Position numbers and translations under genes: made by a program
Source: a virus
Taxonomy: Duplodnaviria; Heunggongvirae; Uroviricota; Caudoviricetes
Strand: one strand, 5' to 3'
Virus record (IMG/VR): IMGVR_UViG_2778261154_000012
Length of the DNA stretch: 5,820 nucleotides
Shown: one piece after another, positions 4,235 to 4,381 of the stretch
Layout of the letters: each line of letters starts with the position of its first letter
Numbering within the stretch: the stretch's first letter is position 1
Notes under the pieces: model-generated
Told to the model about the DNA's origin: nothing
What the model saw: only the letters and a program-made list of their open reading frames with translations
Database searches by the model: none

Positions 4235-4381
4235 TCACACAACACTCAGCCCACGGCAGTGGCACCACACTTCAAACATTCGTTTCACAATTTCACGACA
4301 GTAGAAACCGTCAACATCTCGCGTCAGGTCATAGCGATTGCCGTAACGCTGGCGTACCCATAGCTCAAACGCTTTATTCAT
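4235..4381 (-). CDS. Small hypothetical protein (48 aa) with a Cys/His cluster; not in the supplied ORF track
   Basis: Hand-translated from the minus strand: MNKAFELWVRQRYGNRYDLTRDVDGFYCREIVKRMFEVWCHCRGLSVV. ATG 4381..4379 lies 3 nt after the stop of the upstream 80-aa gene and is preceded by AGGAAG about 7 nt upstream. Its TGA (4237..4235) overlaps the xis Shine-Dalgarno (gtgTGAGGTaatgcATG). This arrangement suggests translational coupling. Confidence 0.45.
   Translation of the reverse strand: MNKAFELWVRQRYGNRYDLTRDVDGFYCREIVKRMFEVWCHCRGLSVV

Follow-up and report, generated by a model that had tools for sequence, protein, structure and literature searches.

A conserved 48-codon gene of Enterobacterales prophages ends within the Shine-Dalgarno sequence of interchangeable excisionase genes

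The window analysed here, by which we mean the whole stretch of 5,820 nucleotides, is the left end of a phiP27-like prophage inserted at yecE, and it is 97.7% identical to phage phiP27 over positions 3900-4800. On the minus strand, the genes follow one another in the order SPFH protein, DUF5406, DUF4222, a 48-codon open reading frame, xis and a tyrosine integrase. The integrase gene (2621..3934, minus strand; Arm-DNA-bind_2 and Phage_integrase) lies 55 nt downstream of xis and, at the end of the prophage, adjoins the yecE (DUF72) fragment at 2193-2594. The xis gene (3990..4226, minus strand) encodes a 78-aa DUF1233 protein (Pfam DUF1233, E = 1.2e-32; phrog_539, E = 1e-39) that carries an excisionase annotation both in phiP27 and in RefSeq. 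Upstream of the 48-codon frame, the gene at 4385..4627 (minus strand) encodes an 80-aa DUF4222 protein of the RgdR family (Pfam DUF4222, E = 2.9e-16); its short start at 4627, the one used by RefSeq, is preceded by a GGAG Shine-Dalgarno sequence, and its stop is a TAA at 4387-4385. An earlier reading of the window, made from the sequence only, had called it an 80-aa gene, which is right for the RefSeq start, the mechanical ORF being 121 aa long.

Several side observations concern these neighbours. The mechanical ORFs on the minus strand (4385-4750 and 4659-5105) are longer than the RefSeq versions of both DUF4222 (121 versus 80 aa) and DUF5406 (148 versus 123 aa); the long forms, which are those of the original phiP27 annotation, would overlap by 92 nt. 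RgdR (ECs1581) is a prophage-encoded protein that activates LEE type III secretion and represses motility in EHEC (PMC3378721, PMC10877973), and it has been described as a DUF4222 protein (PMC10877973); judged by its profile match, the product of 4385-4627 (minus strand) would belong to the same domain family. A second mobile element sits in tandem at yecE, within window positions 1-2118. It comprises a 'phage baseplate protein' ORF (50..598, plus strand) and a 507-aa large serine recombinase (595..2118, minus strand), it abuts the truncated yecE/DUF72 fragment on the side opposite to the phiP27-type tyrosine integrase, and it reaches only about 93% identity in its best E. coli matches. The only genome with 100% identity over window positions 3900-4800 was that of E. 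coli FDAARGOS_944. Its prophage is degenerate, since one IS600 splits the integrase and a second IS600 lies upstream of the DUF5406 gene; the 48-codon frame, xis and the DUF4222 gene are still intact there.

The 48-codon frame with its TGA (4235..4381, minus strand), hereafter the micro-gene, encodes the 48-aa product MNKAFELWVRQRYGNRYDLTRDVDGFYCREIVKRMFEVWCHCRGLSVV. A 48-aa ORF is present at this position, as the sequence-only reading had claimed, on the minus strand, and the geometry that it described at both ends is correct. The ATG of the micro-gene (4381-4379) is separated from the DUF4222 TAA by a gap of 3 nt (AGA), and its Shine-Dalgarno sequence, AGGAAG (4388..4393, minus strand), lies inside the last DUF4222 codons, 6 nt before the ATG; the minus strand at this 5' end reads ATGAAAAGGAAGTAAAGAATG. 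At the 3' end the same strand reads GTGTGAGGTAATGCATGG, and around the stop ...GTG TGA GGT AAT GC ATG GGC. The TGA (4237-4235) is thus embedded in the GAGGT (4236-4232) that serves as the Shine-Dalgarno sequence of xis, the two forming a TGAGGT motif at 4232..4237 (minus strand), and the xis ATG (4226-4224) follows after a gap of 8 nt.

To establish whether this frame encodes a protein, we gathered 112 loci from phage records, GTDB species representatives and IMG/VR contigs. Over the first 42 codons these loci provide 57 unique nucleotide versions, of which 55 were used for dN/dS; those left out were a Morganella locus with a stop at codon 4 (L030) and a locus with an R34L substitution (L019). 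In the micro-gene frame, pooled pN/pS is 0.225 and the median pairwise dN/dS is 0.107, versus dN/dS of 1.84 and 1.39 in the shifted forward frames. The reverse frames gave 1.42, 0.36 and 1.89, the value of 0.36 being uninformative because the wobble positions of that frame coincide with those of the micro-gene. Heterozygosity at codon positions 1, 2 and 3 is 0.15, 0.12 and 0.37, i.e., about three times higher at the third position than at the other two. The frame is open in 111 of the 112 loci, the Morganella stop at codon 4 being the sole early one, and an SD-like tetramer is found at -16..-4 in 41 of 46 unique upstream contexts of the relatives. The earlier reading had proposed a real micro-protein and had named two comparisons with relatives, one looking for frameshifts or stops in otherwise conserved nucleotides and the other for substitutions biased towards synonymous sites; a single early stop among 112 loci favours coding, and the bias is there in this frame. 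Based on this purifying selection on the peptide, the 48-codon frame is a genuine protein-coding phage gene, and one that the phiP27 reference annotation misses. Two plus-strand ORFs that overlap the micro-gene (4219..4491 and 4259..4363) were considered as genes and rejected; pN/pS of their frames exceeds 1.4, and they are therefore not coding. Prophage early genes are silent without induction. Sequence motifs of the micro-protein were not found in the supplements of one Sakai Ribo-seq paper.

The description of the ORF as unannotated holds for the phiP27 reference record and fails elsewhere, as RefSeq/PGAP genomes and other phage records carry it as a hypothetical protein; the micro-gene is already catalogued and is no new ORF. 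The protein of the window is identical to WP_001030139.1 (hypothetical protein, RefSeq) and matches the phrog_3871 profile end to end (residues 1-48 on 1-48 of 48; E = 5.7e-36, 123.6 bits). The UniRef entry 'Bacteriophage protein' A0A0B0VPV2_ECOLX represents the same uncharacterised prophage protein family (phrog_3871 / WP_001030139.1). The micro-protein occurs on at least 1000 contigs, labelled 'hypothetical' or 'Bacteriophage protein', and annotated homologs include STM0895.1n of Fels-1, ORF3 of BP-4795, gp03 of JLK-2012 and proteins of the PhiR phages, PhiR49_2 among them. It is carried by 899 of 5426 complete E. coli genomes, about one in six, and its carriers include Stx-converting prophages (phiP27, BP-4795 and the O157 Stx1/Stx2 phages). 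At 90% identity the family forms 95 clusters, from Escherichia, Shigella, Salmonella, Klebsiella, Enterobacter, Cronobacter, Citrobacter, Pantoea and Hafnia, to which the GTDB loci add Serratia, Morganella and Xenorhabdus; at 50% identity, only 27 clusters were found when 1.84 billion representatives were searched exhaustively with an HMM. The phrog_3871 family is therefore narrow but widespread in Enterobacterales prophages. No family model matched the 48-aa protein in scans of Pfam and NCBIfam, and we found no description of the phrog_3871 micro-protein in the literature, whether searching by sequence motif or by topic (small proteins with excisionases).

All genuine clusters of the HMM search are short, and so there is no informative multidomain relative except one fusion to Xis (P0160), described below. 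The other longer database versions (58-98 aa, and an 80-aa phrog_17609 type) were considered as domain fusions and rejected, as mis-called starts or read-through seem to account for their N-termini. At 90% identity, the window protein falls into a cluster that is represented by an 80-aa DUF4222 protein and includes proteins of both kinds, although the two are not similar to each other; this is probably a clustering artefact that arose via a read-through or chimeric member. An annotated copy of the micro-gene, 85% identical, is also present in OM284015.1, 'Elizabethkingia phage EKP1' (22923-23066). All other members of the family come from Enterobacterales, and Elizabethkingia (Bacteroidota) is a surprising host; the host may be mislabelled, or the copy may stem from a contaminating prophage.

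AlphaFold2, run on the family alignment, predicted a helix at residues 2-13, a hairpin-like loop and a second helix at 30-42, with a mean pLDDT of 88.9. In the alignment (A1), residues F5, E6, Y17, V32 and R34 are invariant, and Y13, G14, D18, L19, T20, D22, G25, Y27, R29, E30, M35, F36, E37, W39 and G44 are conserved at 90% or more. The window protein has every one of these core residues, and it is aromatic and charged residues that carry the conservation in the family. A Foldseek search against solved structures returned nothing with E below 4.6, and the BFVD hits were limited to one member of the family (E = 3e-4) and weak matches (E >= 0.1) to uncharacterised phage proteins that gave no functional lead. 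A TALE-repeat identity suggested by a PDB profile search (E = 2e-16) was rejected as an artefact in which 23 repeats are summed, each of which scores at most 2.2 bits and has, on its own, an E of at least about 2000. As modelled, the micro-protein is a soluble mini-domain of helix-hairpin-helix type with an aromatic core. It probably acts by binding another protein, of host or phage, rather than DNA or metal; we draw this from its size and predicted fold only, because the searches found no structural or sequence relative of known function.

The most striking conservation outside the peptide is found at its 3' border. Every 48-codon homolog ends in TGA followed by GG(T/C), with the next start codon 7-10 nt after the stop (TGAGG-N5-8-ATG), and this start is ATG in all contexts but one, which has TTG. 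Over 55 unique contexts of 48-codon genes, heterozygosity is 0.00 for the TGA, 0.04 for the two G and 0.17 for the T, and then 0.4-0.66 further downstream. The earlier view that so tight an arrangement is beyond chance thus stands, on both flanks, where the arrangement is real and conserved in evolution. The same TGAGG junction precedes excisionase genes of five PHROGs, namely 539 (DUF1233), 2917, 66 (AlpA-like), 1553 (HTH_17-like) and 1300 (PrtN-like), as well as one neighbour of unknown function; with excisionase genes of a sixth PHROG, 629 (lambda-like Exc), the micro-gene shares a GTGA overlap. As the same TGAGG is retained while the downstream excisionase family is swapped, the Shine-Dalgarno sequence belongs to the micro-gene module, and the pattern of conservation at the junction indicates a mosaic joint between this Shine-Dalgarno sequence and the xis start codon. 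Judged by these comparisons, the TGAGGT joint marks the end of the conserved micro-gene module and the start of the variable excisionase modules, and it offers a neat case of a mosaic boundary between a Shine-Dalgarno sequence and its start codon.

Two natural variants depart from this junction. In an abundant 44-aa allele of O157 type there is a net 1-nt deletion and the last four residues are lost; the stop has moved 12 nt upstream, to 18 nt before the xis ATG, and the old TGAGG is kept as the Shine-Dalgarno sequence. The second is a natural in-frame fusion between a divergent micro-protein and a DUF1233 Xis, with neither stop nor Shine-Dalgarno sequence between them (P0160/L113), which is known from two contigs only. 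In a Logan contig (DRR526068; L113, 2962-3336) MQ(KTPMQ)ISFEVW...YEMWVHFNS is joined to MPIDLNNWV..., and the integrase gene is next. In the literature we found no description of a stop-in-SD junction common to unrelated excisionase families, nor of such an Xis fusion, and these two features may be the new aspect of this locus. As a side observation, the synonymous sites of C40, H41, C42 and R43, within codons W39-R43 (window 4250-4267, minus strand), are near-invariant in the 48-codon set (heterozygosity 0.00-0.07). On MFE folding, this stretch, GCCACUGCCGUGGGC, adopts a small hairpin some 25 nt ahead of the xis Shine-Dalgarno sequence. Pantoea and Morganella variants lack this hairpin, and the near-invariance could reflect a sampling bias toward E. 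coli sequences.

The 5' border of the micro-gene is also a mosaic joint. The upstream neighbours vary between phages (DUF4222, DUF551, NinH and others), and the stop of the upstream gene lies within -17..+12 nt of the micro-gene ATG in 37 of 46 unique contexts. What follows downstream also differs: it may be a gene of one of the six excisionase families, a gene for a Q-like or a LexA-like protein, or a terminator. Linkage to an excisionase gene is not obligate. In the Citrobacter phage K1M, whose genome has no annotated integrase, excisionase or repressor, the micro-gene is the last in a small group of accessory genes flanked by tail genes and is followed by a hairpin-plus-T element resembling an intrinsic terminator. 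In the Salmonella phage CF-SP1 there is no xis within the 3.5-kb region examined, and in PhiR5_2 and a Serratia prophage (L024) the micro-gene is part of the nin region and precedes a Q-like gene. The reverse situation is seen in K-12, where the Rac XisR gene (annotated as an excisionase; DUF1233, 32% identity to the Xis of the window) has no micro-gene upstream and is preceded by a 78-nt non-coding gap containing stop codons. Mosaicism at both borders, together with coupling, as a rule, to whichever gene is upstream, is in keeping with a module of a single gene that stands on its own within a compact operon.

Building on the coding status, the conservation, the geometry and the mosaic joint, all of which are observed, the reading that we favour, with slightly better than even confidence, is that of an autonomous micro-protein expressed upon induction, chained between the DUF4222 gene and xis, whose 3' end provides a ribosome-binding socket for exchanged excisionase modules. 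A scan of the minus strand from 3800 to 5820 found no promoter-like or terminator-like site. In a phiP27-like prophage, the micro-gene would come last among the accessory genes of the leftward early operon, co-transcribed with its neighbours, and from this position it follows that the micro-protein would be made only after induction, together with Xis, presumably at the moment of the decision on prophage excision. Its translation would be chained to both neighbours; as the stop lies inside the xis Shine-Dalgarno sequence, terminating ribosomes would be delivered to the xis start in the manner of termination-reinitiation. The conserved 3' end with its TGAGGT may then be regarded as a fixed 'expression socket' behind which different excisionase modules have been recombined. 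In several respects this resembles other translationally coupled gene pairs of phages and bacteria: the micro-gene stops inside a Shine-Dalgarno sequence, with the next ATG 8 nt further on, only 3 nt separate its own ATG from the upstream stop, and relatives of the micro-gene have ATGA, TAATG or GTGA overlaps. The key distinction is that the TGAGG of the micro-gene is retained while the downstream excisionase family changes. If the micro-protein is merely riding along, it is one more uncharacterised phage micro-protein, and the lesson is that of a gene missed in the phiP27 reference annotation.

This autonomous reading leaves the position of the gene unexplained. At nearly all evaluable loci from GTDB species, the micro-gene adjoins an excisionase gene, lies at most about 1.4 kb from an integrase gene or sits at a prophage end, the Serratia locus in the nin/late region being the clear exception; such a near-universal position at the int/xis end argues for a functional tie to excision. 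A tentative alternative, to which we give appreciable but clearly minor weight, is that the micro-protein is an accessory of the excision module acting on a target common to all systems, which could be a host factor or protease controlling the directionality factor, or Int/Xis complexes; these mechanisms are speculative. If true, this would explain why the gene travels with xis whichever excisionase family is present. It agrees with the location directly upstream of genes from six excisionase PHROGs (539, 2917, 66, 1553, 1300 and 629), with the identical TGAGG junction in five of them and the GTGA overlap in the sixth, and with the natural fusion to a DUF1233 Xis without a Shine-Dalgarno sequence; furthermore, in Morganella, Pantoea and unclassified Enterobacterales the micro-gene is still found 0.2-1.4 kb from a P4-type integrase. 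However, K1M has the micro-gene without annotated int or xis, CF-SP1 has it without xis in 3.5 kb, PhiR5_2 and the Serratia prophage have it in nin regions, and Rac XisR does without it, having the 78-nt gap in its place. One specific binding surface for six unrelated excisionase families is implausible, the fusion is limited to two contigs, and mosaic joints at both gene borders are what is expected of a free-standing single-gene module. Should the linkage to six unrelated excisionase families be functional, it would offer a new, tractable handle on prophage excision and on the mobilisation of Stx phages.

A more specific form of the same idea, which we consider unlikely, is that the micro-protein is an unrecognised, family-independent companion of excisionases that would tune directionality or Xis stability through a shared host component. 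Such a component might be a protease or a nucleoid protein, by a speculative analogy to the action of lambda CIII on FtsH. CIII (54 aa) and Kil (47 aa) are small accessory proteins of lambdoid early-left (pL) operons that act by binding host proteins and not as enzymes. The micro-protein is like them in its size, in the place of its gene in a leftward early operon between recombination genes and xis/int, and in being expected only after induction. Unlike CIII and Kil, it has no detected sequence or structural similarity to anything characterised, and its gene family is pinned immediately 5' of xis, which theirs are not.

A further possibility, raised by the suggestion of the sequence-only reading that translation of the micro-gene may gate xis expression, is that the micro-gene is a regulatory uORF or leader of xis in which the act of translation alone matters and the peptide is irrelevant. 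The invariant overlap of the stop codon with the xis Shine-Dalgarno sequence and the tight spacing on both flanks are what such a leader would have, but the peptide itself is under strong purifying selection, with dN/dS of about 0.1, and is predicted to fold with confidence (pLDDT 88.9), and homologs exist without xis downstream. In addition, xis has its own 5-nt Shine-Dalgarno motif with a 5-nt spacing to the ATG, and the 111-nt junction RNA is less structured than its shuffled versions (MFE -20.4 kcal/mol, whereas the shuffles average -26.4; z = +1.94). The region where xis translation initiates is thus unsequestered, and nothing needs to be 'opened' by upstream translation. The O157-type 44-aa allele shifts the stop 12 nt upstream with the Shine-Dalgarno sequence unaltered, Rfam gave no match in the window, and the scan of the minus strand showed no terminator. 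A pure leader is largely refuted by the selection pattern and would now be very surprising. The broader gating proposal is weak and has partial support: for it stand the conserved TGAGG junction, the GTGA overlap and the Xis fusion, and against it the Shine-Dalgarno sequence that xis has of its own, the unstructured RNA, the occurrences without xis and Rac XisR.

The least credible of the alternatives is a zinc-finger-like micro-protein that binds metal through Cys and His, as the sequence-only reading had suspected from a C-x12-C-x-C spacing that is in fact C28-x11-C40-H41-C42: the E. coli allele does have C28, C40, H41 and C42, and these are commoner than chance in close relatives (C28 in 42, C40 in 42, H41 in 35 and C42 in 40 of 48 cluster representatives), but the three Cys occur together in 29 of the 48 and with His41 in 20, all four positions fall below the 90% conservation of F5, E6, Y13, Y17, Y27, V32, R34 and W39, a Morganella member (L026) is without any Cys or His, the number of Cys in other distant members is 0-2, knuckles of the CxxC or CxxH type are absent, and no zinc finger or other solved structure was matched by sequence or fold. 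In the secondary-structure string of the AlphaFold2 model, C28 precedes and C40/C42 end the same 13-residue helix (30-42), at opposite ends of it, which from helix geometry would place them roughly 18 Å apart. Metal binding is thus not borne out, and no metal site is conserved across the phrog_3871 family. The gene immediately upstream of lambda xis encodes Ea8.5, a protein reported to have a homeodomain/zinc-finger hybrid fold; the micro-protein resembles Ea8.5 in having Cys/His residues and in that its gene takes the same slot, just ahead of xis where the early-left operon ends.
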